Of a stretch of DNA of 64,000 nucleotides, positions 7,490 to 21,210 are shown piece by piece. The DNA comes from Escherichia phage Ecwhy_1. Every line of letters begins with the position of its first letter. Position 1 is the stretch's first letter. A program made the translations under genes and the position numbers. The stretch is taken from sequence record MH791411.1; one strand, written 5' to 3'. Below the pieces are notes generated by a model. It did no database searches and was not told the origin of the DNA. It saw only the letters and a program-made list of their open reading frames with translations.

Positions 7490-7527
7490 ATTAAAGCCCA
7501 CCAGCGTTAACCAGTGGGCTATAATAT
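7490..7527 (-). terminator. rho-independent terminator candidate
   Basis: AGCCCACTGG..CTGGTGGGCT hairpin + T-run (minus). Confidence 0.5.
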
Positions 7528-8236: not shown

Positions 8237-8332
8237 TTTGTTTTCTCTCTCTGTTAGTGGGGAGAAGTTTTTCTCCCCTTGATGTAAACTATTATACAGT
8301 ACTATAATCTATTGTCAAACTATTTTTTTATA
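8237..8332 (-). promoter_or_regulatory. PeSL-like cassette
   Basis: TTGACA-17-TATAAT + GGGGAGAAAAACTTCTCCCC hairpin. Confidence 0.65.
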
Positions 8333-8674
8333 TTATTCGAAATCTTCTGGACCGGACTGATAATCATCTTCACCGTATGCACTTTCTAACCGCTCGCCAG
8401 TGTGATCATCAGTTAGTGAGTCATCCTCATAGTTCACGTCTACGCCAGTGATGTAAAACTGGCTATCGTCTGGATCATTGAAATTAATTTTCTGTATGTT
8501 TACAATAACTGTATTGATGCCCAGGACACCGCCATCAGCCGTTACAAAGTACTGATAGTTTTCGCAACCGCCTGAATTGAAACCGTAATTAATTTCGGCC
8601 CGACCATCATTTAAACGCAGTGCCTGGGCGATGATTTCGTTTTCAAAGTTAGATTGAGCAATTGAGATAGTCAT
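8333..8674 (-). CDS. hypothetical protein (113 aa)
   Basis: trimmed to MTISIAQ after hairpin read-through. Confidence 0.55.
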   Translation of the reverse strand: MTISIAQSNFENEIIAQALRLNDGRAEINYGFNSGGCENYQYFVTADGGVLGINTVIVNIQKINFNDPDDSQFYITGVDVNYEDDSLTDDHTGERLESAYGEDDYQSGPEDFE

Positions 8675-8760
8675 GATTTGTTTCCTTATTACCAGGGGAA
8701 ACCGTTTCCCCCTCTCGATGTAAAACATTATACGCTTATTGAGATAGTTTGCAAGTACTT
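8675..8760 (-). promoter_or_regulatory. PeSL-like cassette
   Basis: promoter + GGGGGAAACGGTTTCCCC hairpin. Confidence 0.6.
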
Positions 8761-8784
8761 TCTACAAATACTTTTAAAATAGTT

Positions 8785-8905
8785 TTCAGTACTCAATACT
8801 CATATAATAGATACACTTATGCACCCTGTGGGCTAGTGAGCTATCTCTCAATGAATATATAATAGCAAAATGGCTGACCGGAGTCAACCACTTTTTTCAT
8901 TTATT
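8785..8905. repeat. conserved ~120-bp intergenic element, copy 3
   Basis: GCACCCTGTGGGC box + TGGCTGACCGGAGTCAACCA hairpin + T6. Confidence 0.6.
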
Positions 8906-9126
8906 TTTAGCTTTTAGAATCGCCGCCTTTCGCGTCATGCCTTGCTTGATGTATTCTTGTACTTTCGCTTTACGTGCATTCGCTTTATTTGCTTTCGTAA
9001 ATGCCGAACAACTTTTATAGTTTAAACCTGTTGGATTCATTTAAATCACCATAAAGAATAGATAGGTTACTAACAACGCCGCGATCAATGCACCGACCAG
9101 GGCCGAACTATAGTAAGCTAATGTTT

Positions 9127-9279
9127 TCATTTTTTAGCCTGAAAGTAATGTTTAATTTGAGCGGCGGTCAGTGCACAATTACGCAGGAAGTTTTCTGTAT
9201 AACTGCGGCGAGTACTGAAAGAGAATTGACCTTTGCCGTTACCGATAGTAACATCAAACCGAGCGTTGTATTGTTTCAT
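9127..9279 (-). CDS. hypothetical protein (50 aa)
   Basis: trimmed to MKQYNARFD. Confidence 0.45.
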   Translation of the reverse strand: MKQYNARFDVTIGNGKGQFSFSTRRSYTENFLRNCALTAAQIKHYFQAKK

Positions 9280-9363
9280 TTTGATTCTCCTGTTATTGGG
9301 GAGAATCATTTCTCCCCTTCATGTAAAACATTATACAGTACTAAAAACTAATTGCAAGTACTA
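9280..9363 (-). promoter_or_regulatory. PeSL-like cassette
   Basis: promoter + GGGGAGAAATGATTCTCCCC hairpin. Confidence 0.6.
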
Positions 9364-9507
9364 TTTTTTAGATTTACGCAAACTTTCTACCATCTCAGGA
9401 GTAAGGCCCGGCGGGTAGGAAACTACTTCATCAACGAAACGTAAAGGGAATACCCCAGCGAAAGGTGAACGTGCTTTCTTAGTATTACTCTTTTTTGATG
9501 CTTTCAT

Positions 9508-9576
9508 TTCATATTCCTTAATTAGTGGGGAGAATCATTTCTCCCCTTCATGTAAAACATTATACGCGTTTAAAAA
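9508..9576 (-). promoter_or_regulatory. PeSL-like cassette
   Basis: same hairpin as 9280 cassette; precedes an unannotated ~48-aa ORF (MKASKKSN..) at ~9364-9507. Confidence 0.5.
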
Positions 9577-9786
9577 CTAATTGCAAGTACTATTTGAAAG
9601 TAAATGCTCATACGCTGCATTAACTACGTTTTCAATAACCGACTGTACAGAAAGATCCCCCACGTCCTGGCTATAGTAGAAATCGCTTACAGTGGTGTCA
9701 TCGTATGCAAATACTTTACCAGGTACTGCATCAATCACATACATATTAACCTTTAAGATGTCGATCTTATCCTGTACAGTAAGCAT
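9577..9786 (-). CDS. hypothetical protein (69 aa)
   Basis: ORF track. Confidence 0.55.
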   Translation of the reverse strand: MLTVQDKIDILKVNMYVIDAVPGKVFAYDDTTVSDFYYSQDVGDLSVQSVIENVVNAAYEHLLSNSTCN

Positions 9787-9791
9787 ATTAA

Positions 9792-10064
9792 TTAACCTTT
9801 TAAGTACTGGCTTAAGTAGTCTTGTTGATCTTCGGTGATTGCAGCCATCTTCCCTAGTACTGGATTAATGATATAATCCCCTGTAACGTCCTGTAACGCA
9901 TTCTCAGGCGGTTTAACGGCTGGGGTAGCCATAGCCATCGCCTGGACTTGTTCGACGCTATAACGCTCATATAGGCGGCATTCTTCCGGTGTTAACATAG
10001 CATCAATGCGTTTCATTGGTTTAATGATGCTTTCAACTTCATTCAGTACTTGATTAACGTTCAT
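9792..10064 (-). CDS. hypothetical protein (90 aa)
   Basis: ORF track; ATG. Confidence 0.6.
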   Translation of the reverse strand: MNVNQVLNEVESIIKPMKRIDAMLTPEECRLYERYSVEQVQAMAMATPAVKPPENALQDVTGDYIINPVLGKMAAITEDQQDYLSQYLKG

Positions 10065-10115
10065 GGTATAATCCCCAATATAAGCGGCCTGAATCGACCG
10101 CTAACGATGTTTTGA

Positions 10116-10385
10116 TTAATAGGTGTATGGTTGACGTTCAAACAATGATTGCACGTTGTACGCCCCACTAATGGGCTTTGCTGGTAAATCAATTTTATAT
10201 TGCTCACGCTTAAAGATAATAAAACGGCAATTGTTTTTAACATCAAAATTGATTGAACGTTCCAGTAGTTTACCATCGTGCACAAATACAAGATAACCGC
10301 TCGCTACTTGTTTTGTAGTACTGGTTGCAACCATAGACCGCCGAACATGTGTACCTGCGTCGATTAAAGTACTGATATTTTTCAT
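10116..10385 (-). CDS. hypothetical protein (89 aa)
   Basis: ORF track; AAGAGGAA SD; preferred over overlapping 10061-10291. Confidence 0.55.
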   Translation of the reverse strand: MKNISTLIDAGTHVRRSMVATSTTKQVASGYLVFVHDGKLLERSINFDVKNNCRFIIFKREQYKIDLPAKPISGAYNVQSLFERQPYTY

Positions 10386-10465
10386 TATACGTTCCTCTTA
10401 AGTTAATTTAATTTCTTTCCCCTATGCAGACACTATATCAAAGTATCTGCATAAAGTAAAGCTAA

Positions 10466-10789
10466 TTAAAGATCTTTTTTGCGTTTAACATTCTGTACAG
10501 TACAATGCAACGGGATATTAAGATCATTGCACAAACGAGTAAGGGAGGTTTCATCAGTATTAAGCCCGTCTACTGATTCCTTTAATAGATCTAACGCCGT
10601 TTGTTGATATGCATCTTCATAGCCATAAGTAAATGATTCAACCGCCAGATCATTCAAACCGTTATCCAGTTCGACGCTTACATGACAAGAATGATAAGTA
10701 TTGCCATATGAATCAGTCCAACGTTTACCGTCAACATTGATTGCACGGATTGCAGCCAGGGAAACGGTGTTAATGATAGTTTTAGCCAT
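10466..10789 (-). CDS. hypothetical protein; paralog of 3623-3946
   Basis: shared RWTDSYGNTYHSC..TYGY..VKRKKD. Confidence 0.65.
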   Translation of the reverse strand: MAKTIINTVSLAAIRAINVDGKRWTDSYGNTYHSCHVSVELDNGLNDLAVESFTYGYEDAYQQTALDLLKESVDGLNTDETSLTRLCNDLNIPLHCTVQNVKRKKDL

Positions 10790-10878
10790 TTTTGTATTCC
10801 TTAAATTAATATGTTGTCTTGATAAAATCTATTATGCCAGTACTATCAAACTATGTCAATAGTACTGTGATAATATTT

Positions 10879-11091
10879 TTACTTACTTTCTTTCGCTGCT
10901 TTGTGCGTTGCCACTGCCATAACCACATCAGCACGAACAAAGTTTTTAACCGTGTCGCTGTAATAATTGATCGCTTCATCAATATCTGCGAACATCCGAT
11001 ACATACCGCACCACGATACTTTATAACCTGCTTTCACTTCTTCCAGCTTAACCAGTGATTTGTTAACTTTGATTTTAGTAATGATAGCCAT
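10879..11091 (-). CDS. hypothetical protein (70 aa)
   Basis: ORF track; upstream promoter cassette identical to the one at 10790-10878. Confidence 0.6.
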   Translation of the reverse strand: MAIITKIKVNKSLVKLEEVKAGYKVSWCGMYRMFADIDEAINYYSDTVKNFVRADVVMAVATHKAAKESK

Positions 11092-11319
11092 TTTATTTTC
11101 CTCAGTTGTCTTGATAAAATCTATTATGCCAGTACTATCAAACTATGTCAATAGCACTGTGATAATATTTTTACTTACTTTTTGCTTTCTTGATTGCTTC
11201 CACCTGGTCGGCCCATTCTTTACCCCATACTTGTAAATTATAATGGTACTGGCAAAGAGCAACGCCCCGCTTTAAACCCGTAATAGATTTCTGACCACAT
11301 TGACAAGTTTTCATTTTAG

Positions 11320-11400
11320 TTTCCTTGTAGTGGGGAGAACCATTTTCTCCCCTTGATGTAATGTATTATACTTTATTCGATTTACTTTGCAAGTACTTTT
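11320..11400 (-). promoter_or_regulatory. PeSL-like cassette
   Basis: promoter + GGGGAGAAAATGGTTCTCCCC hairpin; precedes unannotated ~47-aa Cys-containing ORF (MKTCQCGQK..) at ~11176-11319. Confidence 0.5.
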
Positions 11401-11628
11401 TTAATTTAATTCATCAAGGCAAAGGATACGCTCAACGCCCAAATCAGTTAAACTAATCGACGGCACTTGATAGGTTTCAATGTATGCTACACTTGCCCAC
11501 TGACCGAACTCATTAACGGCCCAGGTATTCATTGCATTTTGCAATTCCGCACCTTCCTTGTTGGTAATGACTGCAACTACTTGTTCGTTGCCAGTAGTAC
11601 CAGATACGCGAGTAATGATAATAGCCAT
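11401..11628 (-). CDS. hypothetical protein (75 aa)
   Basis: trimmed to MAIIITRV. Confidence 0.55.
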   Translation of the reverse strand: MAIIITRVSGTTGNEQVVAVITNKEGAELQNAMNTWAVNEFGQWASVAYIETYQVPSISLTDLGVERILCLDELN

Positions 11629-11720
11629 TGTTTTGATTCCTTTGATTTGGAAGGAGAACCGTTTCCCCCTCTCGATGTAAAACATTATACGCTAATCTCT
11701 TAATCGTGCAAGTACTTTTT
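11629..11720 (-). promoter_or_regulatory. PeSL-like cassette
   Basis: promoter + GGGGGAAACGGTTCTCC hairpin. Confidence 0.6.
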
Positions 11721-11869
11721 ATTACTTTTTGCAAAATACTTTAAACGCTCTCAATCGCGTTCTTACAGCCTTAACGCCACCAGCTAGGGCAATGCATCAG
11801 ATAATCAGTTTAATGCGTTAGAATCGTTTCTAGGCGGTGCTGGTGGCATGGTAAACGATAAACACAAAA

Positions 11870-11913
11870 AAGCCCACCGTTTAAGGTGGGCTAGTGATTC
11901 AGTACTTTAATTG
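11870..11913 (-). terminator. rho-independent terminator
   Basis: GCCCACC-TTAAAC-GGTGGGC hairpin + TTTTTT on minus strand after stop. Confidence 0.7.
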
Positions 11914-12396
11914 TTATGCTTCAACTTTGCGATGAGATTCGATCCATTCCTCGCGAGTCATACCGCTGGCGTTAATCGCGTCCAGTACTACCGCAATGCA
12001 GTTACCACGCACCGGAATCAGATATTCTTCCCCGTTGTCCAGTACTACCGCTACGCGTTCCTGAATCCATTTTTTGGCTTTTACTTCTGGCTTGTCTTCC
12101 CCATACTTAACCGCCAGGGCTTTTTGTGCCATCTCTGTAACTACTTCCAGATCCAATCCAACTACTGCCGCCTGAATACTTTCGATTGTTGCTTGTAGTT
12201 CTGCTTCACGGGCCGCCTTTGCCGCTTCAATTTCTGCCGCTTTATTTGCTTGTAGTTCTTTCGCAGTACTGTACGCGATGTTAAAATTATTGCGTACCGC
12301 TTTCATGGTATCGTTATCCAGTTCAGCCAGGATCTCAGCCGCGACGTTAGTTTCATTTGCTACCAGTGCTTTGATGAATGATTTTACATTAGCCAT
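11914..12396 (-). CDS. hypothetical protein (160 aa), Ala/Glu-rich
   Basis: track ORF starts at TTG; ATG (MANVKSF) follows GAGGA SD. Confidence 0.6.
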   Translation of the reverse strand: MANVKSFIKALVANETNVAAEILAELDNDTMKAVRNNFNIAYSTAKELQANKAAEIEAAKAAREAELQATIESIQAAVVGLDLEVVTEMAQKALAVKYGEDKPEVKAKKWIQERVAVVLDNGEEYLIPVRGNCIAVVLDAINASGMTREEWIESHRKVEA

Positions 12397-12599
12397 TTTA
12401 TAAATCCTCAATTAAAGTTTAGTTTACGTTTATTAGTGTATCAAAGTTTTCTCGACGTGTCCAGTTTTTCGTTCGACTTACTGGCGGTCTACTTAGTGCT
12501 CCCCGTCTTGATGTAATACATTCTACGCTTTTCTGCGGTAATGTCAACTACTTTCTTAAAACTATTTTCAAAGTATCTCAGTACTACGATACTACAAAA

Positions 12600-12629
12600 A
12601 CAAAAAAGCCCACCAGGTGGGCTATGTAC
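12600..12629 (-). terminator. rho-independent terminator
   Basis: GCCCACC-TGGTGGGC hairpin + T-run (minus). Confidence 0.65.
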
Positions 12630-12860
12630 TTAATCAGTGAGTAAAATATTAAACACTTTACCATTTAACGTTATTGGTGCACTGCTACCAGGCACAAGAT
12701 CCGTTAGTATACCTGCAATCGCTTTATCATTGGCTACCTTTCCAGTGTCCAACAGTACTACAGTACTGATAAGATTAACGCTCGTTTCAATATCATAATG
12801 CACGGCGTTAAGTAGTTGTGTAGTACTGCTTTCGTTAAGTAAAACAATTCGCTTAGTCAT
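12630..12860 (-). CDS. hypothetical protein (76 aa)
   Basis: ORF track. Confidence 0.55.
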   Translation of the reverse strand: MTKRIVLLNESSTTQLLNAVHYDIETSVNLISTVVLLDTGKVANDKAIAGILTDLVPGSSAPITLNGKVFNILLTD

Positions 12861-12881
12861 GATGTTACCCCGTAGTATCTA

Positions 12882-13181
12882 TCAACGGCAATTAATAACG
12901 CCGGTATGAGTTACTTTCTCGGTATCCATTACAGTGACCGAACCGCGTTTAGCACTGGCATCATAATAAATTGTCGTGCTACCGTTTTCGTCTTCTTCAT
13001 GGAACGGGCCGTTTTTAAATGCTTCCGGCTGGATCTCTAAATCCTTTAATACAATCTCGCCAGTTCTTTCATCGGTCATTGCAACAGTGCACTGAATGAA
13101 TTTTTCACTACTTACATCTAATGACGCATTAACAGCGAAAGAGGAAACAGATAAAGCCAGGGCGATGATTGCAATTTTCAT
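12882..13181 (-). CDS. secreted hypothetical protein (99 aa)
   Basis: N-terminal signal-peptide-like MKIAIIALALSVSSFAVNAS. Confidence 0.6.
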   Translation of the reverse strand: MKIAIIALALSVSSFAVNASLDVSSEKFIQCTVAMTDERTGEIVLKDLEIQPEAFKNGPFHEEDENGSTTIYYDASAKRGSVTVMDTEKVTHTGVINCR

Positions 13182-13265
13182 TTGATTATCCTTAGTTACC
13201 AGGGGAAACCGTTTCCCCTTGCGATGTAAAATATTATACAGTACTAAAAACTAATTGCAAGTACT
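13182..13265 (-). promoter_or_regulatory. PeSL-like cassette
   Basis: promoter + GGGGAAACGGTTTCCCC hairpin. Confidence 0.6.
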
Positions 13266-13502
13266 TTATGATTTTTTATAAAACATTTCAGCAGTGATAT
13301 TTTTACCCGTTGGCTGTACTTTATCCAGAATTTTTTGATGCCCTGGTCGTCCAAAGGAATATGATCCGTAAACAGTAAACCAGTAGTTACCCTCAGTGTT
13401 TACATGTACAGCACAATAAGGAACACCACGCGATTCATCACTAGTAAAGTGTGATACCGTTCCCGTTACATTCGCAGACGTTGATTTGATTTGTTCGACC
13501 AT
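13266..13502 (-). CDS. hypothetical protein (78 aa)
   Basis: ORF track. Confidence 0.6.
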   Translation of the reverse strand: MVEQIKSTSANVTGTVSHFTSDESRGVPYCAVHVNTEGNYWFTVYGSYSFGRPGHQKILDKVQPTGKNITAEMFYKKS

Positions 13503-13580
13503 TTTCTTATTCCTTAGTTACCAGGGGAACCGCTCCCCCTATGCAAAACATTATACGCGTTTAAAAACTAATTGCAAGTA
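13503..13580 (-). promoter_or_regulatory. PeSL-like cassette
   Basis: promoter + GGGGGAGCGGTTCCCC hairpin. Confidence 0.6.
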
Positions 13581-13610
13581 TTTTAATAAAAAGTATTTGA
13601 AAAATAGTTG

Positions 13611-13680
13611 TTGACAAGTGCATCCAGTACTGGCATAATTACTACATCAAGACGAAACAGTCACTAACCCACCGGGTGCC
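13611..13680 (+). promoter_or_regulatory. plus-strand sigma70-type promoter + conserved box
   Basis: TTGACA-N17-CATAAT on plus strand, ACCCACCGGGTGC box ~30 nt downstream. Confidence 0.5.
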
Positions 13681-13745
13681 GAGATCCGTCTATTAAATGA
13701 TTCAGTACTGAAAAAGTAACGGGGAGTTATTATCTCCCCGTGTTG

Positions 13746-13967
13746 TTATTTTGTAAGGTATAAACAGAAGTCGCCTTTATTTGCTACGCCGCCAGTGTAA
13801 CGCGAGGAATAGTTAGAAACGTCCTGGACTTCTGCTATTACCAGGGTATCATCATTCAATTCGTCGCAGAAGCAAACGGCTGGATCTTGTACGCCGATTT
13901 TGTCGGCATGTTCCCGCATAGATTTAACCAGTGCTTCCAGTTGGGAAAGAGTAGTGATATTAGCCAT
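13746..13967 (-). CDS. hypothetical protein (73 aa)
   Basis: trimmed to MANITTL. Confidence 0.55.
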   Translation of the reverse strand: MANITTLSQLEALVKSMREHADKIGVQDPAVCFCDELNDDTLVIAEVQDVSNYSSRYTGGVANKGDFCLYLTK

Positions 13968-14051
13968 TTTATTTTCCTCATTACCAGGGAGAACCATTTC
14001 TCCCTTTGATGTAAACCATTATACAGTACTGAAAACTAATTGCAAGTACTT
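13968..14051 (-). promoter_or_regulatory. PeSL-like cassette
   Basis: promoter + GGGAGAAATGGTTCTCCC hairpin. Confidence 0.6.
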
Positions 14052-14240
14052 TTAATTAAATTCCATAAAATCATTTTCAACGTGCACAACAATCTGATTA
14101 TTTTTAAAGGACGCAGAAAACTCTATACAATCATAAACCGCTTTTTCTGTTACCAGACTATGAGCACCAATCGGATTAATTGGGGATTGAATTGTTTCAA
14201 TCTCGTTACCTTGTTCATTAACGATTAAAATATTAAACAT
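14052..14240 (-). CDS. hypothetical protein (62 aa)
   Basis: ORF track. Confidence 0.5.
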   Translation of the reverse strand: MFNILIVNEQGNEIETIQSPINPIGAHSLVTEKAVYDCIEFSASFKNNQIVVHVENDFMEFN

Positions 14241-14279
14241 TGCCGTTACTCCTGGATAGTGTTAACTCGATATAAAGTA

Positions 14280-14462
14280 TTATACGCCTTTATTGCTTAG
14301 TGTCCAGTGATCACGCATCATACGCCCCGCACGATCCCAGCTAGTAGGCATGGGTATGCCTTGCAATTCGTTAGGGGAGATCTCGACCTCGATCCCTACA
14401 TCAATAACAGTCATTCCAGCTTTCGCAGCTTGCTCGCGGATAACCTCAGATAATGTTGTCAT
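14280..14462 (-). CDS. hypothetical protein (60 aa)
   Basis: ORF track; leader duplicated from the 14052 gene. Confidence 0.5.
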   Translation of the reverse strand: MTTLSEVIREQAAKAGMTVIDVGIEVEISPNELQGIPMPTSWDRAGRMMRDHWTLSNKGV

Positions 14463-14536
14463 GATTAAAGCTCCTGGATAGTGTTAACTCGATATAAAGT
14501 ATTATACAGTACTGAAAACTAATTGCAAGTACTTTT

Positions 14537-14797
14537 TTAATATTGTTTGTCGTCGTCTTCCTCGATGAATTGACCGACGAAATGATCTACTTTCGCTTTG
14601 AGGCTTTTATAATCTTCTTCTACTTCCGTTAAACGTTCCTGGTAGTATTCCAATGCTTCAAGATACGCCGCCTCAGCAGTTTTTGCACGCATAGCTAAAT
14701 TCATTCCACGCGTTTCATCAAATAGCCAATAACCATCGGTGCACTGGCTAATAGATAATGACTTGCTTAGTACTGTATAGCTAATTACTTTACTCAT
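14537..14797 (-). CDS. hypothetical protein (86 aa)
   Basis: ORF track; GAGGG SD after GGCGGGTAATAGTTCCCGCC hairpin. Confidence 0.6.
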   Translation of the reverse strand: MSKVISYTVLSKSLSISQCTDGYWLFDETRGMNLAMRAKTAEAAYLEALEYYQERLTEVEEDYKSLKAKVDHFVGQFIEEDDDKQY

Positions 14798-14854
14798 TAG
14801 ATAACCCTCAGTAAAGGCGGGAACTATTACCCGCCATTATCTCAGTACTGAATA

Positions 14855-15094
14855 TTACATTCCAACCATTGCAGCACGGATCGCAGTAGTGCTATACTTA
14901 AAGCCGTCCGGCGTTGTAGTAGTACCGTTGGCTTTTAATCTGCGGTACATACATTCCGCAGCAATATCTTTAGTTCTACTTTGTGCGATGCAACTTTGAG
15001 CAAGCCGATACAATGACTCACCGTTATTAATCCAAAGGCTTACATTCCAATGAGTTTTGTTTTTGTGTCCGTTGTAAGTTTTAGTACTAGCCAT
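14855..15094 (-). CDS. hypothetical protein; paralog of 16895-17134
   Basis: shared HKNKTHWNVSLWINN..PDGFKYSTTAIRAAMVGM; trimmed to MASTK. Confidence 0.6.
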   Translation of the reverse strand: MASTKTYNGHKNKTHWNVSLWINNGESLYRLAQSCIAQSRTKDIAAECMYRRLKANGTTTTPDGFKYSTTAIRAAMVGM

Positions 15095-15184
15095 TTTTAA
15101 ATCCTCGTTTGAGCGGGGAACCACTCCCCGCCTCGATATAAAGTATTATACGCTTTTAAACTTAGTTTGCAAGTACTTTTTAAA
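15095..15184 (-). promoter_or_regulatory. PeSL-like cassette
   Basis: promoter + CGGGGAGTGGTTCCCCG hairpin. Confidence 0.6.
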
Positions 15185-15796
15185 TTAATATTCGATTGAT
15201 TCCACTACGCCATCAATAACATTGAATTGATACTCGTTACCCTCAATCAGTGCCGTAATGTTTTCAGTAGTGAATTGATCCTCATATGCATTCTCTAAAT
15301 CACGGTACAACTTGCGGGACAATTCACGAATAGTTTCAGTGAGTAGTTCCTCAAGCTCATTAACTAACGTTTCTTGTTTTGCGGTTAAATCAGTGTAAGC
15401 CGATTCAATGTACCCGCTTACAGTATTCTCATGCGAGTAGTGGGAGTGCGAACGTTTTACACTCATCGCCAAATCATCTTCATTCAGCAAGTGACGGATT
15501 GAGCGATACTTAGTTAATGCTCTTACCTTGCGTAAAAACTTCACTGCGTCAACGTGGTCAGTACTGATTGATGCACCGTCACCCTGGGACCAAAAACCAC
15601 TGAATTGTATTTCAGCGTCATTAATGCCATATTCCGGTAGTACTGTTTCTTTATAGTATTCAATTTCACTTTCAGAAAAATAATTGTCGTTTGAGTTTTT
15701 TTCACGTTCCCGAACCAGTTCGATAGCTGACGTTTGTTGTTCTGCGTTCAATTCAGAAAAAGCCATAACATAAGTAGTAGTAGTGATAGTTTTCAT
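15185..15796 (-). CDS. hypothetical protein (203 aa)
   Basis: ORF track; ATG after GAGGGT SD. Confidence 0.65.
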   Translation of the reverse strand: MKTITTTTYVMAFSELNAEQQTSAIELVREREKNSNDNYFSESEIEYYKETVLPEYGINDAEIQFSGFWSQGDGASISTDHVDAVKFLRKVRALTKYRSIRHLLNEDDLAMSVKRSHSHYSHENTVSGYIESAYTDLTAKQETLVNELEELLTETIRELSRKLYRDLENAYEDQFTTENITALIEGNEYQFNVIDGVVESIEY

Positions 15797-15825
15797 TTTG
15801 TAACCCTCATTCAGTAGTTGATGTA

Positions 15826-15960
15826 AGTATTATACGCTTTTAAAAACATTTGTCAAACTATTTTATCAGGGGAGTTTTTCGTGTGCCTTACTCCTGGGCT
15901 ACTTAACGGGAAGTTACTTATTTCGTTCCCCGTCCTGATGTAAAACATTATACGCCTTTA
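15826..15960 (-). repeat. duplicated structured leader, copy B
   Basis: near-identical to 4601-4740. Confidence 0.6.
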
Positions 15961-16020
15961 AACATAGTTTGCAAGTACTTTTTAAAAATAGTTTTCAGTA
16001 CTGAATAGTAAAAAAAAGTA

Positions 16021-16081
16021 TTGACAGCATTATCAAGTACTGGTATAATATACCCCATGACAACAGCTAACCCACCGGGTG
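16021..16081 (+). promoter_or_regulatory. plus-strand consensus sigma70 promoter + conserved box
   Basis: TTGACA-N17-TATAAT (perfect consensus), ACCCACCGGGTGC box downstream. Confidence 0.6.
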
Positions 16082-16223
16082 CACAATTGTAACTATACTA
16101 AACTAATTTTTCTATAGATACACTCCCGCACCCTATGGGCTACGGCTTATCTGCCAATGAATACATTATGCCAGTACTGACAAAATAAGTCAATACCGGC
16201 AATTGTAAAGATTTGTAAACTGC

Positions 16224-16460
16224 TTATACTGCAATCGCGTCCAGGCTATAATAATAATAAGTGCCGTATTGGTGTACTTTATTACCTTTTATTTCAGTAC
16301 TGAATGAATCCGAACGGTTTGCATATGATGTTAATTTAAAGTACTTTGATTTGCTGATACGTTGCCATACACCACAGATCCGCTGTAAGTAAGTAGTTTT
16401 ATTCGTGGTAGTATCTTTTACGGTTTTAACTTCAGTCATATACATATTAGTCATTTTCAT
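16224..16460 (-). CDS. hypothetical protein (78 aa)
   Basis: ORF track; GGAG SD. Confidence 0.55.
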   Translation of the reverse strand: MKMTNMYMTEVKTVKDTTTNKTTYLQRICGVWQRISKSKYFKLTSYANRSDSFSTEIKGNKVHQYGTYYYYSLDAIAV

Positions 16461-16541
16461 TACTCCAGGTTATAGGCGGGAAGAGTTCCCGCTCTCGATG
16501 TAAAACATTATACGCCATTAAACATAGTTTGCAAGTACTTT
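16461..16541 (-). promoter_or_regulatory. PeSL-like cassette
   Basis: promoter + GCGGGAACTCTTCCCGC hairpin. Confidence 0.6.
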
Positions 16542-16808
16542 TTATTCAAGTACTGCAATCTTTTTAGTACGGTACACGGTCACGCGGTTGCCCTTTCGGT
16601 CGAGCTTTATTTCTACCACTCGACGCGATACACTATCGGGACTTTTTAAGGCCGCTAACCAGTACTGTAATGATCTGGCGGTACTACGCTTTACAATGGC
16701 CCAACGTTTACCACGTTCCGATTGTACGCCCATATCTTTAAACGTTGCCCCGTCCTGGCGTGCGGCGATCCGAGCTTGTTCACGCGTCGCAAAATACTTA
16801 ATTTTCAT
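16542..16808 (-). CDS. hypothetical protein; paralog of 3132-3527
   Basis: trimmed to MKIKYFATREQ. Confidence 0.6.
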   Translation of the reverse strand: MKIKYFATREQARIAARQDGATFKDMGVQSERGKRWAIVKRSTARSLQYWLAALKSPDSVSRRVVEIKLDRKGNRVTVYRTKKIAVLE

Positions 16809-16894
16809 GCTGTTGCCCTTATCGTTGGTGTATGAATAAAACACTATTATAAAGTACTATCGCAAAAAAATGATAGTACTTTAAATAAATTCTA

Positions 16895-17134
16895 TTACAT
16901 TCCAACCATCGCCGCACGGATCGCAGTAGTGCTATATTTGAATCCGTCCGGTGTTTTATCTTGTCCAGTCTGTTCTAAAAATAACATCATATGACGGGCC
17001 GCATCATTGCGATTAGTGCTATCGTTAATAAAGTCCTGGGCCAACCGATACAATCCCTCATCGTTATTAATCCAAAGGCTTACATTCCAATGAGTTTTGT
17101 TTTTGTGACCTAAGAACATTTTTGATTTAGCCAT
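16895..17134 (-). CDS. hypothetical protein; paralog of 14855-15094
   Basis: trimmed to MAKSKMF. Confidence 0.6.
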   Translation of the reverse strand: MAKSKMFLGHKNKTHWNVSLWINNDEGLYRLAQDFINDSTNRNDAARHMMLFLEQTGQDKTPDGFKYSTTAIRAAMVGM

Positions 17135-17227
17135 TTTTTTAATCCTCTTATATAGTGGGGAACTATTCCCCACCTGATGTAAAACATTATACGCCATTAA
17201 ACATAGTTTGCAAGTACTTTATTAAAC
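17135..17227 (-). promoter_or_regulatory. PeSL-like cassette
   Basis: promoter + GGGGAATAGTTCCCC hairpin. Confidence 0.6.
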
Positions 17228-17590
17228 TTATTTGTAAATTTTGCCACTGTCAGCCCATACCAGGAAACGAGGCATATTATCCCATGCATCTTGTTTTAAG
17301 TTTAAGCCGTGCAATTCCTCAGTTGTTGCCATCCCTGGTACTGGCTTACTACACACCGCGAAATTTTCGCCCATATACTGATAAACCATCGTCAAATCAT
17401 TTGAGATCATTATATGGATCATTGAATCCAGCATCAAAGTAGCGGCGTATTGTTCACGCTTAAGCGGCAACATTGCAATAAGTTCCCGATAAGCTGCAAT
17501 GTGAATTTTTACAGTTTCAGCCGGAAGACCTTTCATCTCATCGCGGAAGTTTACCAGGTTAAGCATGATTTTATTGATTTGAGTCGCCAT
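17228..17590 (-). CDS. hypothetical protein (120 aa)
   Basis: trimmed to MATQINK. Confidence 0.6.
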   Translation of the reverse strand: MATQINKIMLNLVNFRDEMKGLPAETVKIHIAAYRELIAMLPLKREQYAATLMLDSMIHIMISNDLTMVYQYMGENFAVCSKPVPGMATTEELHGLNLKQDAWDNMPRFLVWADSGKIYK

Positions 17591-17650
17591 CGTTTTAATC
17601 TCTCTTAATGTGTAGCGGGAAGTGTTCCCGCTCTCGATGTAAAACATTAT
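17591..17650 (-). promoter_or_regulatory. PeSL-like cassette
   Basis: promoter + GCGGGAACACTTCCCGC hairpin. Confidence 0.6.
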
Positions 17651-17702
17651 ACGCTTTTATCAGTACGGTGCAAGTACTTTCTACAAATACTTTTAAAATA
17701 GT

Positions 17703-17795
17703 TTTCTTTCTATATAGGAGTACTATTATTCAGTACTGCAATCATCCAGGGGAACTATCTTTCTATATAGGAGTACTATTATTCAGTACTGAATC
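17703..17795. repeat. two tandem copies of a ~33-bp direct repeat
   Basis: CTTTCTATATAGGAGTACTATTATTCAGTACTG repeated with ~53-bp period. Confidence 0.7.
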
Positions 17796-17953
17796 AATCC
17801 ACTAAATCATCCCTATACCCCGTAAAACGTCCTCAGACGCATTCTAACGCATTAATACACATAAGCTATACATTTGCACCATTCCAATCATTCCAGGGCT
17901 TTACAGGCCGTTTAAACGCGTTAAATTATTTTCAATTATTTTGTTTTTAGGTA

Positions 17954-18025
17954 TTGACTTGATCCTGAAAAAGCGTATAATTACTACATAGACGCGAGAA
18001 AGCGGATACCCCAGGGGGTGGGAAG
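17954..18025 (+). promoter_or_regulatory. plus-strand sigma70-type promoter
   Basis: TTGACT-N16/17-TATAAT. Confidence 0.5.
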
Positions 18026-18169
18026 ATCCGTCCAAAATTCAAGATATAAAAAAAGGATACACTCCCGCACCCTAGCAGGTAAACGCACTTTCTCAGTACT
18101 GAAATATAGTACCATAGTCCGGCCCAGGATAGCAAGCAAATTAATTAAAACTTTTTTGCTTCCAGGGTA

Positions 18170-18237
18170 TTGCTTTATTTTTCCAGTACTGTATAATAGT
18201 TCCATCAAGTCGAGAAAGACTCAAGCCCACCGGGTGC
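18170..18237 (+). promoter_or_regulatory. plus-strand sigma70-type promoter + conserved box
   Basis: TTGCTT-N16-TATAAT, GCCCACCGGGTGC box downstream. Confidence 0.5.
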
Positions 18238-18294
18238 ATAGTTACGCCCAAAATTCAGTACTGAAAAAATTTTTAAAAATATCCGGCCAGGCCG

Positions 18295-18323
18295 TTGACA
18301 TTGCCCCCAGTTTATAAGATAAT
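18295..18323 (+). promoter_or_regulatory. plus-strand sigma70-type promoter
   Basis: TTGACA-N17-GATAAT. Confidence 0.45.
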
Positions 18324-18420
18324 GATTCCAGATTCAGAAAAATCTAACACCAGATACTGCGGGGAAACTATCCCCACGCGGTAGGGGAACTATTGGAAAA
18401 AACAAAATAAAATTTTGATT

Positions 18421-18612
18421 TAGCCGTCTATACTTCCAGACGTGTAACCATCTAGCCGTTTAGCCGTCCAAACGTCTAGCCATCCAGCCATCCAGAAATC
18501 TAGCCGTTTAGCCGTCTAGATGGATAGCCATCTTTACTTCCAGACTTCTGGAGGGCTAGACATATCTACGCCCAAAATCCATCCAGGGTAACTACGCCCA
18601 AAATCCGTCAGT
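18421..18612. repeat. iteron-like array of interleaved short direct repeats
   Basis: TAGCCGT x5, CCATCCAG x3, CTACGCCCAAAATCC x2, ACTTCCAGAC x2; locally GC-richer. Confidence 0.65.
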
Positions 18613-19629
18613 ACTATACCATAGATCTATCTTTTGAAAGGGAGTATTCAGTACTGCCATCATAGCCCTCACTATGTTACCCTAGGAGGATGAAGACCAT
18701 CATGTAGTACTGAATACTGTTAGAGGGAATCCACCAGCTTGTGCTGGTGGCATAATGCTTTAGATTAAAATCAGTACTGACACCATTCTGTTAATATCAG
18801 TACTGTTATTACGATTTTCATATGAGGTTCAAAAAGATGTACCACCACAGGAGGAACTATCTTTTCTGTACTGTCTCACGACAGGAGGTAGAGTAAATGA
18901 ATTGTTCGCAGCAACTCATCACCCTATGTAGAACATTATACAGTACTGAATCATAAAGTCAATAACTTTCTTTCATCTTTCAGTACTGATATTCTTGAGA
19001 ACTACCCGACTACAAACATCATTATATCCCACAAATCATAAACGTCCCAACGTAAATTTCAACTTTCGAAGATCCAACTTTTATTTCATAGGTACTCCAA
19101 AATTTTTAGGATCGAGATTTAGGATGGAGTACTAACCAACTTTTTGCTGGAGCCTCAAGGGGTAATGGAATTTTACCCCGAAGGGTAAAGGGGTAATTGA
19201 AATTAAGGTGAAAGTAATAATTCAGTACTAATCATTGCGTGATTACTTTTGATTACATTTGATGTAATTTGCAAAATGGAAAAGGAGCTTGGAAACTACA
19301 AAGTACGGCAGACTTCCTCTGCCTACTTAGTGGGATATCGCCACCTTCAGTACTGAATACTTTTAGGGCAGTACTGAATCCTTCCCTAGCATTCTTGAGT
19401 AATCTTGTCTATAATAATCAGTACTGAATCATATATAATCATTCTGTGATTCTACGGTGCTCATATAAATGTTTATATATGATTACTTATGACTACATAT
19501 GATTACGGGGTTTAGCCTGGGGAGAATCCTAGTGATCGCATTTGTCCAGGCTGAATTTTAACAATTCTTCTAATTGTTAAAGCCTGTCCAATGCTTTCCC
19601 TGCGGAGCTTCCCCTGTCTATATGTTGAA

Positions 19630-19836
19630 TTACTTCCTATATATAAGCATTAACATATAGTAGTACTGATTATGCTGTACATTCTCTTTAATATTATAAG
19701 GGTCTATAGCAATCTCGGTACATCTGTTAAATGCATATCTATTAAATGCCAGTACTATTATAGATCTAATCCATGCTTGGTCAGTCGGTGGTAGTTTACT
19801 TATATAGTACTCTTTATAGTTTTTTATGTTCTGCAT
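19630..19836 (-). CDS. small paralog family member (68 aa)
   Basis: family: N-term M-N-x-K-E-(F/Y)-Y, C-term hydrophobic ..LIYR-like. Confidence 0.6.
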   Translation of the reverse strand: MQNIKNYKEYYISKLPPTDQAWIRSIIVLAFNRYAFNRCTEIAIDPYNIKENVQHNQYYYMLMLIYRK

Positions 19837-19847
19837 AGTATACCTTA

Positions 19848-20039
19848 TTATTTCAAAGTACCATATAGTACTCTTAATAGGAAGTAGTACGTATTAGAGA
19901 TATCATTAGTAGTTAAAACAATCTTTGTACACATATTAAATTCGTATTGAGTCATTGCCAGGGGGATTAAATTGTTAACCCATGCTTGTTCGTTTTCTTT
20001 TAGTTTACTTATATAGAAATCTTTATGTTCTTTATTCAT
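19848..20039 (-). CDS. small paralog family member (63 aa)
   Basis: MNKEHKDFY..; tightly packed with neighbours. Confidence 0.6.
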   Translation of the reverse strand: MNKEHKDFYISKLKENEQAWVNNLIPLAMTQYEFNMCTKIVLTTNDISNTYYFLLRVLYGTLK

Positions 20040-20241
20040 ATAGGAATAGTATACCTATGATGCCGGAGTACATATTAGTACTGTTATTATTGTCGTTTGC
20101 GTTTAAAGTCATTTGAATACAATTATTGTAGCATACTCTGCCGAAATAAGTATCAGTACTTAAAGGTGCTGTAGTCCTTAGAAACATTTGTTCTGTGGGG
20201 CTGAGGTGTTTGGAGTAGAATTCTTTATGTTCTTTATTCAT
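20032..20241 (-). CDS. small paralog family member (69 aa)
   Basis: MNKEHKEFY.. Confidence 0.6.
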   Translation of the reverse strand: MNKEHKEFYSKHLSPTEQMFLRTTAPLSTDTYFGRVCYNNCIQMTLNANDNNNSTNMYSGIIGILFLYE

Positions 20242-20246
20242 ATTAG

Positions 20247-20432
20247 TTAGTGTCTGTATATAAGTAATAGTAAGAATACGTACTGCACCTGTTCATCTTT
20301 AGTATTGAGTACTGTACGTATTGCGTCATGGAACAAGAATATAGTACTTGGGTCATTAGAATTTAAGGGGTTTACGGGGACGGCGTGTTTGTAGTTCCCT
20401 TTAACAAATTGTGTGTAGTATTCTCTATGCAT
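20247..20432 (-). CDS. small paralog family member (61 aa)
   Basis: MHREYYTQF.. Confidence 0.6.
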   Translation of the reverse strand: MHREYYTQFVKGNYKHAVPVNPLNSNDPSTIFLFHDAIRTVLNTKDEQVQYVFLLLLIYRH

Positions 20433-20433
20433 A

Positions 20434-20622
20434 TCAGTACCTATATATTAGGGCGAGAATGTAGTACAGTTTATATGTATTATAATCTGGGTTGATAGCA
20501 CATAGTGTGTGGTAGTGGAATTGTTTGGTATTTTTCTTATCCTTGATATCTATTGGGTTTAGTGGTATAAGCATTTGGGAGTTTAGTTCCAGATGGTTTA
20601 AGTAGAATTCTTTGTTATTCAT
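20434..20622 (-). CDS. small paralog family member (62 aa)
   Basis: MNNKEFYLNHL.. Confidence 0.6.
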   Translation of the reverse strand: MNNKEFYLNHLELNSQMLIPLNPIDIKDKKNTKQFHYHTLCAINPDYNTYKLYYILALIYRY

Positions 20623-20821
20623 AGAAGAATATTAGTCCCATTACGCCTGAGTACTGAATATTTTTGTTATTGTTTTCTAAAGCTTCTAGAGTAATACGTA
20701 TACAATTATTAAAGCAATCTCTGGCGTGTGGTGTATCTAAACTTAAAGGTGATACACTCCTTAGAAACATTTGTTCTGATGCACTGAGGTGTTTGGTGTA
20801 AAATTCTTTCTGTTCGTTCAT
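20615..20821 (-). CDS. small paralog family member (68 aa)
   Basis: MNEQKEFYTKHL.. close paralog of 20032 gene. Confidence 0.6.
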   Translation of the reverse strand: MNEQKEFYTKHLSASEQMFLRSVSPLSLDTPHARDCFNNCIRITLEALENNNKNIQYSGVMGLIFFYE

Positions 20822-20831
20822 ATTGGCCTCT

Positions 20832-21020
20832 TTAGTACACGAAAGCTAGGTACAGGGTATGATACAGTACTCGATGATAGCTATCAAAATCTAGTATACA
20901 TGCTTTAGTGCACATAGTAAAGTACACTTTATCGTTTTGAGCATTGATACCGCGAGGTTTATCTAATAGATTAGTACTGAGGTACATTGGGAAATATTTT
21001 GTGTAGTATTCTTTATGCAT
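20832..21020 (-). CDS. small paralog family member (62 aa)
   Basis: trimmed to MHKEYYTKYF. Confidence 0.55.
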   Translation of the reverse strand: MHKEYYTKYFPMYLSTNLLDKPRGINAQNDKVYFTMCTKACILDFDSYHRVLYHTLYLAFVY

Positions 21021-21021
21021 A

Positions 21022-21210
21022 TTAGTACCTGAATATAAGTAGGATAGTGTTATATAATTGGTCATAGCTACTACTATTTTCTATACTGCGTTCTATGCAA
21101 TTATTGAATCCCAGTACTGCCAAATCGTTATCCAGGGGGACTTTATATCTGGCGTAGTGTTCAAAAATACTGGGGAGAAATTGTGTGTAGTATTCTTTGT
21201 GGTTGTTCAT
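21022..21210 (-). CDS. small paralog family member (62 aa)
   Basis: MNNHKEYYTQF.. Confidence 0.6.
   Translation of the reverse strand: MNNHKEYYTQFLPSIFEHYARYKVPLDNDLAVLGFNNCIERSIENSSSYDQLYNTILLIFRY

Follow-up and report, generated by a model that had tools for sequence, protein, structure and literature searches.

Candidate terminal control region with a predicted array of MetJ boxes at the inner end of the terminal repeat of a jumbo coliphage

A non-coding stretch at the inner end of the terminal repeat

We analyzed a 1,979-bp stretch (positions 17651 to 19629) within a 64,000-nucleotide segment of Escherichia phage Ecwhy_1 (sequence record MH791411.1; the whole 64-kb segment is referred to here as the window). 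The stretch carries a phased array of 8-bp units that score as met boxes of the host repressor MetJ, and it lies at the inner end of a long direct terminal repeat (DTR). The source phage is an Asteriusvirus (i.e., a PBECO4/121Q-like jumbo coliphage), and the whole stretch was matched at 94 to 99% identity by 41 phage records, all of which were PBECO4/121Q-group (Asteriusvirus) jumbo coliphages and Salmonella phages. An initial annotation had described it as a gene-free region with iteron-like repeats and many short motifs, possibly a replication origin, a protein-binding hub, or a cluster of non-coding RNAs. As an observation, this description is largely right and partly confirmed by the following analyses.

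The position of the stretch was established from related records. In the G17 record (370,817 bp), positions 1 to 20,668 are duplicated at 350,150 to 370,817, giving a DTR of 20,668 bp. The right copy of this repeat ends with ...TCTGCCTACT at what is window position 19327, and the final bases of the record (...GGCAGACTTCCTCTGCCTACT) align with window positions 19307 to 19327. The duplication thus stops at a defined base, on which five independent GenBank records from different laboratories agree: fEgEco12, CRJP21, and BF17 begin, and WPEC3 and G17 stop, precisely at window position 19327. In E9.1, the distance from the array to the record start is that predicted by a terminus at 19327. A PhageTerm repeat length of 20,668 bp for Sharanji and a terminal redundancy of ca. 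20 kb deduced from sequencing coverage for G17 are found in the literature. Given that window position 1 corresponds to G17 position 2628, window positions 1 to 19327 represent terminal repeat and positions from 19328 onward represent unique DNA; the non-coding stretch therefore takes in 1,677 bp at the end of the repeat, crosses the physical end, and continues for 302 bp into unique DNA. Two copies of the region are present per virion DNA molecule, one internal and one forming an extreme end. The neighboring genes are all on the minus strand; in the right-hand repeat copy, the stretch is the chromosome tip, and the repeat genes are read inward from it. This terminal position is implicit in the database records, while the content of the region was previously undescribed.

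The initial annotation held that no open reading frame (ORF) of 60 amino acids (aa) or more lies in the stretch. Taken literally, this was incorrect, as a mechanical listing yields four ORFs of 62 to 99 aa (17608 to 17805, plus strand, 65 aa; 17947 to 18135, minus strand, 62 aa; 17984 to 18208, minus strand, 74 aa; and 18018 to 18317, plus strand, 99 aa). In effect, the claim stands. When the window was aligned with seven relatives (G17, 121Q, CMSTMSU, A4, EJP2, UE-S1, and PBECO4), all four ORFs were interrupted by stops or frameshifts in most of the relatives, and none displayed an excess of variable columns at third positions, in contrast to the flanking 139-aa gene (28/34/67 variable columns by codon position). 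Moreover, the curated records of 121Q, PBECO4, and A4 contain no annotation in the stretch, while several automatic annotations place five to eight "hypothetical proteins" there. Because the ORFs are not kept in relatives, the third-position bias is lacking, and the curated records are empty, we consider the stretch effectively non-coding. Hidden small genes were also rejected: a further ORF of 52 aa is broken in the relatives, as are the four larger ones, and two tiny coupled ORFs with a good ribosome-binding site, found by eye at ca. 18823 to 18957, are disrupted by an 8-nt insertion in G17 that shifts the second frame. On the left, the flanking gene has its true start at 17590, as indicated by a PHROG match to residues 18 to 139 of the 139-aa ORF and by the 363 nt annotated in related records; therefore, the non-coding stretch extends from 17591 to 19629. 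The flanking genes offered no clue to the function of the region, since Pfam and PHROGs yielded only families of unknown function. For annotation, these results mean that the 2 kb need no longer be filled with spurious hypothetical proteins.

Lack of coding is accompanied by strong conservation. Across the seven relatives, identity within the repeat part was 0.8 to 0.97, equal to or above that of the flanking genes, with the best conserved part at 19050 to 19150 (0.96). Identity fell to 0.47 to 0.67 at 19300 to 19450, and this least conserved part is just beyond the end. Sensitive BLAST searches revealed that positions 17975 to 18197 are ca. 70% identical in Klebsiella Alcyoneusvirus. This block is at a similar distance from the end in both groups, i.e., 1,156 to 1,383 bp in Muenster (PhageTerm repeat, 20,030 bp) and 1,130 to 1,352 bp in Ecwhy_1.

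An array of met-box-like units and its counterparts in other phages

The most distinctive element of the stretch is the array (Table 1). An 8-bp period was detected over 18421 to 18519 by Tandem Repeats Finder (TRF), and the units (AGCCGTCT, AGACGTGT, AAACGTCT, AGCCATCT, etc.) share one register and are one base off the met-box consensus AGACGTCT. The interleaved direct repeats reported by the initial annotation were all recovered, namely, five copies of TAGCCGT (18421, 18453, 18461, 18501, and 18509), three of CCATCCAG, and two of CTACGCCCAAAATCC (18566 and 18592). We scanned the window with the published symmetrized met-box matrix and thresholds of Augustus and Spicer (PMC3228920), in which a site consists of at least two adjacent in-phase 8-bp boxes, each scoring at least a quarter of the consensus score, with a total of at least the consensus score. 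A single site was found in the 64 kb, at 18422 to 18533, with 14 contiguous boxes and 102.8 bits; when single weak slots were allowed, 16 of 18 slots over 18422 to 18565 scored as boxes (120 bits). As a control, a scan of 8.5 kb of Escherichia coli K-12 (metJ-metB-metL-metF) retrieved only the metJ/metB (4 boxes; 31.2 bits) and metF (4 boxes; 24.9 bits) operators. The maximum in 200 dinucleotide-preserving shuffles of the window was 3 boxes (23.2 bits), and in 2,000 shuffles of the array segment alone it was 2 boxes. The array was kept in every Asteriusvirus record checked (14 to 21 boxes). By position, the boxes contain A1 (16/18), G2 (14/18), A/C3, C4 (15/18), G/A5, T6 (16/18), C7 (13/18), and T8 (13/18). 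From these matches, we infer that what had been called iterons is an array of predicted MetJ binding sites, with MetJ as its putative ligand.

We also considered a phage-encoded MetJ and a host copy of the array. A tblastn search of 50,697 phage records yielded no phage MetJ homolog, only host contamination, and 5,426 complete E. coli genomes contained no match to the array; both possibilities were rejected. Our literature search found no paper linking MetJ or met boxes with phage terminal repeats, T5-like phages, or jumbo phages. As far as the searched literature shows, a met-box array common to several phage families is new.

A search with the array alone matched 83 of the 50,697 phage records. 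The hosts of the carriers were Escherichia (36), Vibrio (18), Erwinia (7), Aeromonas (5), Salmonella (4), Yersinia (4), Serratia (2), Cronobacter (2), Klebsiella (2), Providencia (2), and Xanthomonas (1), and 82 of the 83 records have hosts in MetJ-bearing orders, with XbC2 being the exception. Such a search is biased to relatives of the query; the Vibrio, Aeromonas, and Providencia carriers share nothing else with it. Among jumbo phages, the array fills 14 of 17 slots in Erwinia phage pEa_SNUABM_12 (673 to 808 bp from the record start), 14 of 16 in XbC2, 13 of 15 in GAP32, and 11 of 12 in Yersinia phage fHe-Yen9-04, and it is also carried by two IMG/VR jumbo contigs of ca. 371 kb. Serratia phage BF has a BLAST match to the array at 726 to 797 bp from the record start, and Cronobacter and Yersinia jumbo phages likewise have arrays near their ends.

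Counterparts also occur in T5-like phages. Aeromonas phage AhSzq-1 (T5 family) has 28 boxes (221 bits) in a 950-bp ORF-free gap, ca. 2.8 kb from the A2 and A1 DNA-transfer genes. Providencia phage PR1 (T5-like) has nine near-consensus boxes at 9620 to 9691 (88.5 bits), inside an ORF-free segment (9366 to 10551) that spans the end of an annotated 10,461-bp repeat, with the array 770 to 841 bp from the repeat end. The PR1 array is preceded by TGTGGATAActtcTGTGGATAA, i.e., a pair of DnaA boxes 4 bp apart, which is close to the 3-bp spacing of the DnaA-box pairs in T5; pair and array together span ca. 9530 to 9691 of the PR1 record. Vibrio phage Pontus fills 16 of 17 slots at record positions 468 to 603, and Vibrio phage pVp-1 has nine boxes in an ORF-free gap. 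A weaker, GGATGGCT-type array in phiKT/PGT2-like podoviruses (positions 38 to 109) was not relied on. Two further IMG/VR contigs passed the matrix with near-perfect tandem arrays, one with 36 copies of AGATGTCY at 7257 to 7560 (360 bits) and the other with 13 copies of GGATGGCT at 8201 to 8304; both may be ordinary repeats that happen to score. The terminase of the AGATGTCY contig is distantly related to those of Achromobacter and Pseudoalteromonas phages.

Ribbon-helix-helix proteins, omega and ParR among them, recognize short repeats in tandem, and the array might likewise be bound by a phage protein, i.e., a small terminase subunit or a centromere-binding type of ribbon-helix-helix protein, for packaging or end handling. 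This would suit the location of the arrays within ca. 0.1 to 0.9 kb of record starts or repeat boundaries in many terminal-repeat phages, the C bias at box position 3, the poor MetJ fit of the GGATGGCT-type arrays of PGT2 and one IMG/VR contig (G at position 6), and the carrier labeled as a Xanthomonas phage. We nevertheless regard it as unlikely. A matrix built from host operators alone picks the array as the single site in 64 kb, nearly all carrier records (82/83) have hosts in MetJ-bearing orders, no MetJ homolog is encoded by phages in the 50,697 records, and the carriers comprise jumbo myoviruses, T5-like siphoviruses, and phiKT-like podoviruses, with no protein shared between the window and the T5-like loci compared. 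A binder common to jumbo and T5-like carriers was rejected on the same grounds, the sole cross-match among the loci compared being a DUF7249 gene shared with PGT2. This family (DUF7249; phrog_871) has two small paralogous members in the repeat (16895 to 17197 and 14855 to 15124), and their proteins are 83% and 63% identical to that of an early gene of the T7-like phage PGT2 (2123 to 2362), which indicates that early genes have probably been exchanged between very different phages.

Promoters, palindromes, and elements around the cut site

The coordinates of the array and of the other elements of the region are listed in Table 1.

Table 1. Sequence elements of the non-coding region of Ecwhy_1 (window coordinates)
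Element	Position	Strand	Remarks
Leader with stem-loop of first repeat gene	17591-17640	-	Gene ATG at 17590
Sigma-70-type promoter of first repeat gene (TTGCAC, 16-nt spacer, TATAAT)	17647-17674	-	Read from sequence
Two 44-nt direct repeats, each with two AGTACT cores	17705-17801		Single copy in G17, A4, EJP2
Plus-strand promoter of convergent pair (TTGACT, 16-nt spacer, TATAAT)	17954-17981	+	11/12
Convergent promoter pair with inverted leader cassettes	17954-18140		ACCCnnnnGGGTG at 18008, reverse complement at ca. 18067-18082
Sigma-70-type promoter, CAGTACTG touching -10 (TTGCTT, 16-nt spacer, TATAAT)	18170-18197	+	9/12
Outward sigma-70-type promoter (TTGACA, 17-nt spacer, GATAAT)	18295-18323	+	11/12; array ca. 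95 nt downstream
Leader motif CGCGGnAGGGGAnCTAnTGGAAAA	18376-18400	+	92% over 25 nt in pEa_SNUABM_12
Array of 8-bp units in one phase, scoring as MetJ met boxes	18422-18565		Consensus AGCCGTCT vs AGACGTCT
Two copies of CTACGCCCAAAATCC directly 3' of array	18566-18606	+	Third related copy at 18243
Inverted Chi pair CCACCAGC-ttgt-GCTGGTGG (palindrome CCACCAGCttgtGCTGGTGG)	18731-18750		Exact octamers
Inward sigma-70-type promoter, CAGTACTG in spacer (TTGACT, 16-nt spacer, TATAAT)	18935-18962	-	11/12
Conserved terminal element, inverted repeat AGGTACTCC...GGAGTACT around 13-bp tandem TTTAGGATSGAG	19090-19133		TRF, conservation
10-bp periodic TGATTACwTT units	19240-19273	+	55-90 bp from end, inside repeat
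Hairpin GGCAGA-cttcc-TCTGCC, then TACT	19307-19327		6-bp stem, 4 nt from end
Physical chromosome end / inner repeat boundary (GCCTACT/TAGTGG)	Between 19327 and 19328		Record ends; cut-site context conserved
Unique non-coding DNA beyond boundary	19328-19629 (302 bp)		Three CAGTACTGAAT sites, second TGATTAC set, long imperfect inverted repeat 19518-19614
Second TGATTAC set	19469-19506	+	Unique DNA; the two sets flank the cut site

Several of the promoters have no gene behind them. No ORF follows either promoter of the convergent pair, and the block that contains this pair is 89% identical over 65 nt in XbC2. The promoter at 18170 is followed by a leader of a repeated type (CATCAAG..ACCCACCGGGTGC). 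The order of promoter, leader, and array seen downstream of 18295 recurs in pEa_SNUABM_12, XbC2, GAP32, and the two IMG/VR jumbo contigs, with a spacing of ca. 95 nt between promoter and array in all the jumbo genera. The promoter at 18935 is the first to be met from the chromosome end toward the repeat genes and is 94% identical over 33 nt in Klebsiella phage Muenster. On either strand of the repeat, we observed a recurring module of TTGACA or TTGCAA, 8 to 9 nt, CAGTACTG, and TATAAT, followed by a leader with a GGGGAGA...TCTCCCC-type hairpin or a ACCCnnnGGGTGC motif (window positions 1157, 5571, 7198, 13625, 14024, 14507, 16020 to 16180, 48418, and 63246); the modules at 13625 to 13760 and 16020 to 16180 are plus-strand or convergent units with no ORF. 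The ARNOLD "terminators" of identical energy in G17 probably mark the hairpins of these modules. The leader that precedes the array (18383 to 18410) contains a Shine-Dalgarno-like AGGGGA, 5 nt, ATG or TTG, GAA, and a very short frame (3 codons in XbC2 and GAP32, 5 in Ecwhy_1, and 14 in pEa_SNUABM_12, where it runs into the array), which could be a start-stop mini-ORF or a coincidence.

We also considered the proposal that the region is a cluster of non-coding RNAs. ARAGORN predicted no tRNA gene in the window, and the Rfam covariance scan at the gathering threshold retrieved no family in the 64 kb. A permissive Rfam scan of 17400 to 19900 gave a single match at an E value of <5, a spurious plant microRNA (19.7 bits against a cut-off of 60). 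A cluster of tRNAs or known RNAs was thus rejected, while the ORF-less promoters and the leader cassettes conserved across genera lend the idea weak support. We therefore considered whether the main products of the region are small regulatory RNAs from the ORF-less promoters, with sense and antisense transcripts from 17954 to 18140 and a leader RNA from 18295. The cassettes are conserved across four genera, a long hairpin is predicted with a minimum free energy of -39.2 kcal/mol in the window and -27.0 to -35.7 kcal/mol in the seven relatives, and one stem pair is altered on both sides relative to the Erwinia phage (GAGAAAG/CTTTCTC versus GAGAAAT/ATTTCTC). The outer stem, however, is not kept in the Klebsiella phage, no clear terminators follow, the divergent sequences are too few for a covariation test, and neither an Rfam family nor a tRNA was recovered. 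The ACCCnnnnGGGTG cassette also precedes ordinary genes elsewhere in the repeat; promoter-plus-leader modules of this kind explain the conserved blocks. A region devoted mainly to small RNAs is, in our estimate, improbable.

A second class of repeats consists of the palindrome CAGTACTG. The "at least 12 copies" of CAGTACTGAA counted in the initial annotation are in fact 13 copies of this 8-mer, 7 of which are followed by AA. It occurs 67 times in the window (0.83 expected), with a density of 6.6 per kb in the region versus 1.4 per kb in the remainder of the repeat. At ca. 13 of these 67 positions, CAGTACTG occupies the 3' part of a promoter spacer and directly touches the -10 box (CAGTACTG followed by TATAAT); at the remaining sites, T-rich and A-rich arms lengthen it. 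This arrangement suggests that CAGTACTG is a putative operator for a dimeric protein. LexA and TrpR were rejected as its readers owing to a misfit of half-site spacing (the spacings observed were 21, 26, 40, and 53 bp).

The shorter motif AGTACT is present 280 times in the 64 kb, versus ca. 22 expected from base composition. It is also enriched inside long ORFs (2.6 versus 0.34 per kb expected), in all frames and with frame 0 favored (45/78). The same bias is common to Klebsiella, Erwinia, and GAP32-like jumbo phages and is not seen in T5-like loci. Our literature search found no description of an AGTACT bias in jumbo phages, and we know of no binder or modification for this motif. The "33-bp tandem repeat" of the initial annotation, which carries AGTACT cores, does exist as a repeat; it is better described as two 44-nt copies 53 bp apart that are 91% alike (17705 to 17748 and 17758 to 17801). 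Next to the array, a sequence similar to the CTACGCCCAAAATCC copies (CACCCAAAATTC) comes after the array in Erwinia and Cronobacter phages.

Chi, the octamer GCTGGTGG, acts on RecBCD in one orientation only, relative to the end at which the enzyme enters. The plus-strand Chi of the inverted pair (18743 to 18750) is 577 bp from the physical end and in the orientation active for RecBCD entering there. There are 14 copies of Chi in the window (537 to 59452), a 23-fold excess over the 0.61 expected, and 10 of them are within the 19.3 kb of terminal repeat. In the G17 repeat, nine copies are on the minus strand (active for RecBCD entry at the left end) and one is on the plus strand. Both physical ends therefore face a correctly oriented Chi within 0.6 to 1.4 kb, and coding-strand composition could account for part of the strand bias. 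The palindrome formed by the pair is kept in five of the eight Asteriusvirus records; its loop is TTGT in Ecwhy_1 and PBECO4 and ACAA in G17, 121Q, and UE-S1, and both orientations thus exist among close relatives. An ARNOLD "terminator" annotated in G17 is this palindrome with no T-run after it and was rejected as a terminator.

Closer to the cut site, the element at 19090 to 19133 is 91% identical over 44 nt in XbC2 and is partly present in pEa_SNUABM_12, ca. 70 to 135 bp from the starts of those records; it is a candidate recognition site for the packaging enzyme. The GATTAC repeats noted initially are confirmed as four copies (19241, 19251, 19481, and 19501), as is the perfect inverted repeat TTAACAATT/AATTGTTAA (19558 and 19572). 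The latter forms the tip of the longer inverted repeat at 19518 to 19614, where G17, A4, and UE-S1 have another palindrome and 121Q and PBECO4 have lost it. The inverted repeat was rejected as a terminator, since no U-run follows and the tip is not kept in 121Q and PBECO4. Across window positions ca. 19500 to 20500, at the repeat/unique boundary, the GC skew changes from ca. -0.1 to ca. +0.2 with genes on both sides on the minus strand, and the GC content changes from 0.38 to 0.33. Directly past the non-coding region (19630 to 21065), genes of ca. 61 to 77 aa (MNKEHKEFY...) form a tandem paralog family (phrog_11711) of unknown function, and gene content there differs among relatives.

Proposed working and comparison with known systems

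On the basis of these observations (i.e., the position, duplication, conservation, and lack of coding of the stretch, together with its motif statistics), we read the region as a non-coding terminal control region of a jumbo coliphage chromosome with a predicted MetJ array, and we put the probability of this reading at roughly 0.6. The earlier suggestion of a protein-binding hub would hold by extension from sequence, with 14 to 16 MetJ-type boxes, 13 copies of CAGTACTG (several in promoter spacers), a Chi pair, and conserved end elements as its candidate sites. We infer each binding event and functional step as follows. Because the chromosome tip bears sites for proteins that are present before phage expression, host RNA polymerase, RecBCD, and MetJ would engage it. 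After entry and before any phage protein is made, these host proteins would load on the region; RNA polymerase would begin early transcription at the inward promoters, and Chi would halt RecBCD degradation from the end. MetJ with S-adenosylmethionine would coat ca. 140 bp directly downstream of the outward promoter, and this coat could form a cofactor-dependent nucleoprotein block ca. 0.8 to 0.9 kb from the end. Later, the conserved terminal elements might guide the packaging enzyme to cut at 19327.

Several points weigh against this reading. In about half of the boxes, C occupies position 3, where it is a 10% minority base in host operators; this is the main departure from the consensus. The array is not over a promoter, being ca. 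95 nt downstream of one with no ORF behind it, and no methionine gene is near; we therefore do not assign the array to the host regulon and claim no more than that its sequence should be bound by the same protein. XbC2 is labeled as a phage of Xanthomonas, whose order lacks MetJ, and T5 itself and the Klebsiella jumbo phages have no array although their hosts have MetJ. No DnaA box (TTATCCACA) was found in 17651 to 19629 at up to one mismatch, and T5-style paired DnaA boxes were thus rejected for the region. No ORF of the window matched the A1/A2 loci of PR1 and AhSzq-1, in a limited comparison, since the initial 2.6 kb of the repeat fall outside the window and the A1 genes in those loci are incomplete. 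The chromosome ends used here are those of database records and two papers, the order of the entry events is conjecture, and the skew change near the boundary would also suit an origin.

In an origin, transcripts from the ORF-less promoters would act as primers or form R-loops, by analogy with T4 oriF/oriG or the primary origin of T7, and an initiator would bind the array as iterons. Strong promoters with no gene behind them, dense repeats, the T4-like replisome of these phages (CBB paper), and the skew switch at ca. 20 kb without a change of gene strand (cumulative minimum in the 18- to 20-kb bin) are all in keeping with this. On the other hand, the switch coincides with the repeat/unique boundary and the change of gene family (phrog_11711), so that composition alone can explain it, and the would-be iterons score with the MetJ matrix and are also found in unrelated phage families whose replication machinery differs. 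Together with the lack of DnaA boxes and the mapping of T5 origins to the genome center (bioRxiv 10.1101/866236), this makes an origin rather improbable.

If MetJ does bind, several roles may be envisaged, i.e., a transcription or replication block, a stop or anchor in DNA entry, a metabolic sensor, or a decoy. As a decoy, the array would increasingly titrate MetJ during phage DNA replication and thereby de-repress the synthesis of methionine and S-adenosylmethionine, to the benefit of the phage, and its position at the end would be incidental. Sixteen boxes per copy versus four in the scanned host operators, in two copies per genome, with neither a methionine gene nor an overlapping promoter to regulate, are what a decoy might look like. 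A pure decoy, however, has no need of a similar end distance in several genera or of a fixed promoter-leader-array order, and host de-repression would be pointless for the T5-like carriers, whose group degrades host DNA early. We thus view a pure decoy as an unlikely role and favor a positional one, given the conserved distance from the end and the conserved order of promoter, leader, and array.

Candidate boxes for other host repressors are found in phages that lack the array. Copies of AAATGAGAATCATTATCATT match 15 to 16 of 19 positions of the Fur-box consensus, with three in T5, seven in Muenster, and five in phiKp_21; none at ≥15/19 was found in the window, and Fur-like boxes were rejected as an element of it. 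In T5, the AAATGAGAATCATTATCATT units (T5 record, 9574 to 9634) are the direct-repeat-C and palindrome G-I units of an untranslated segment, Repeat Region 3, and sit at the calculated shear point of first-step transfer. In Klebsiella jumbo phages, where no met-box array is found, the terminal non-coding region contains five to seven copies of this motif. A common theme would be arrays for cofactor-dependent host repressors near the repeat boundary. Specifically, such arrays may be placed within ca. 1 kb of the end or boundary by two or more lineages with no relation to each other (Rak2-like jumbo myoviruses and T5-like siphoviruses), and the bound host protein would then be the long-sought trans-acting component of a stop or checkpoint in early DNA entry or end handling, known in T5 as the injection stop signal. 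The arrays would be MetJ boxes here and Fur-like and DnaA-like boxes in other members, and phiKT-like podoviruses would be a weaker third case. We offer this generalization, taken as a whole, tentatively and with more doubt than conviction; if true, it would make an entry step sensitive to the metabolic state of the host.

How T5 DNA entry stops after 8% of the genome has been an open question since the 1960s. To our knowledge, the cis site has been narrowed only to the repeat-rich untranslated region, and no host partner has been shown. Providencia, Aeromonas, and Vibrio relatives of T5 have a MetJ-type array of 9 to 28 boxes in or near the stop-signal region, and an array of this kind is also present in unrelated jumbo phages, several of which have it at a comparable distance from the chromosome end. 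Should MetJ bind, a virulent phage would clearly have recruited a metabolic repressor of its host for a structural or sensing task, and the array would serve as a marker by which chromosome ends could be located in the genomes of phages of enterobacteria, Vibrio, and Aeromonas. Should it not bind, the array would still be a conserved cross-family terminal element in need of a binder.

We compared the region with four known systems. T7-type ends combine a terminal repeat, strong inward promoters for the host polymerase, and short-repeat arrays beside the repeat. Ecwhy_1 resembles them in its non-coding end, its sigma-70 promoters toward early genes, and its periodic repeats near the cut site; it differs in the size of the repeat (20.7 kb versus 160 bp), in having outward promoters as well, and in its host-repressor boxes and Chi. 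Chi-dependent protection from RecBCD shares with the region the exact octamer in the active orientation for the nearby end, while here two opposed Chi form a 20-bp palindrome that is confined to 5/8 relatives and is absent in Klebsiella relatives. Compared with E. coli MetJ operators (PMC3228920), the array has the same strict-phase 8-bp units, the same preferred bases at 7/8 positions, and T-A steps at most box junctions, and it passes the published single-box and whole-site thresholds. It is unlike them in its 14 to 16 boxes (up to 28 in AhSzq-1) versus 4 in the operators scanned, its frequent C3, its lack of promoter overlap, and its location on a virulent phage chromosome, ca. 0.8 kb from the end.

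The fourth system is T5. Its Repeat Region 3 is untranslated, spans 9194 to 10409 (1.2 kb), lies mostly in the repeat with a 270-bp overrun, and is thought to hold the injection stop signal, and the large inverted repeats of T5 contain paired DnaA boxes 3 bp apart (Davison, bioRxiv 10.1101/866236). Ecwhy_1 likewise has an untranslated, repeat-rich region at the inner repeat end, of which 1,677 bp are within the repeat and 302 bp outside it. A 13-nt exact match (CGCATTCTAACGC) links window positions 17838 to 17850 with Repeat Region 3 (positions 471 to 483 of the T5 segment compared) on the opposite strand; with an E value of 0.27, it may be due to chance. ACGCATT motifs related to this match are located at the other end of the G17 repeat. 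The two phages differ in that T5 has no met-box array and instead carries DnaA-box pairs and Fur-box-like repeats, and in that Ecwhy_1 is an unrelated jumbo myovirus; two-step entry is a T5 feature, and the comparison made here is one of sequence. Both regions are rich in palindromes and in direct and inverted repeats, match or exceed the neighboring genes in conservation, and have clustered sites matching host DNA-binding proteins. Because met-box arrays of this type are present in or near the corresponding region of T5-family members (PR1, AhSzq-1, Pontus, and pVp-1), the analogy is more than positional, and the untranslated region at the inner end of the T5 repeat, with its presumed injection stop signal, appears to be the closest analog of the terminal region of Ecwhy_1.

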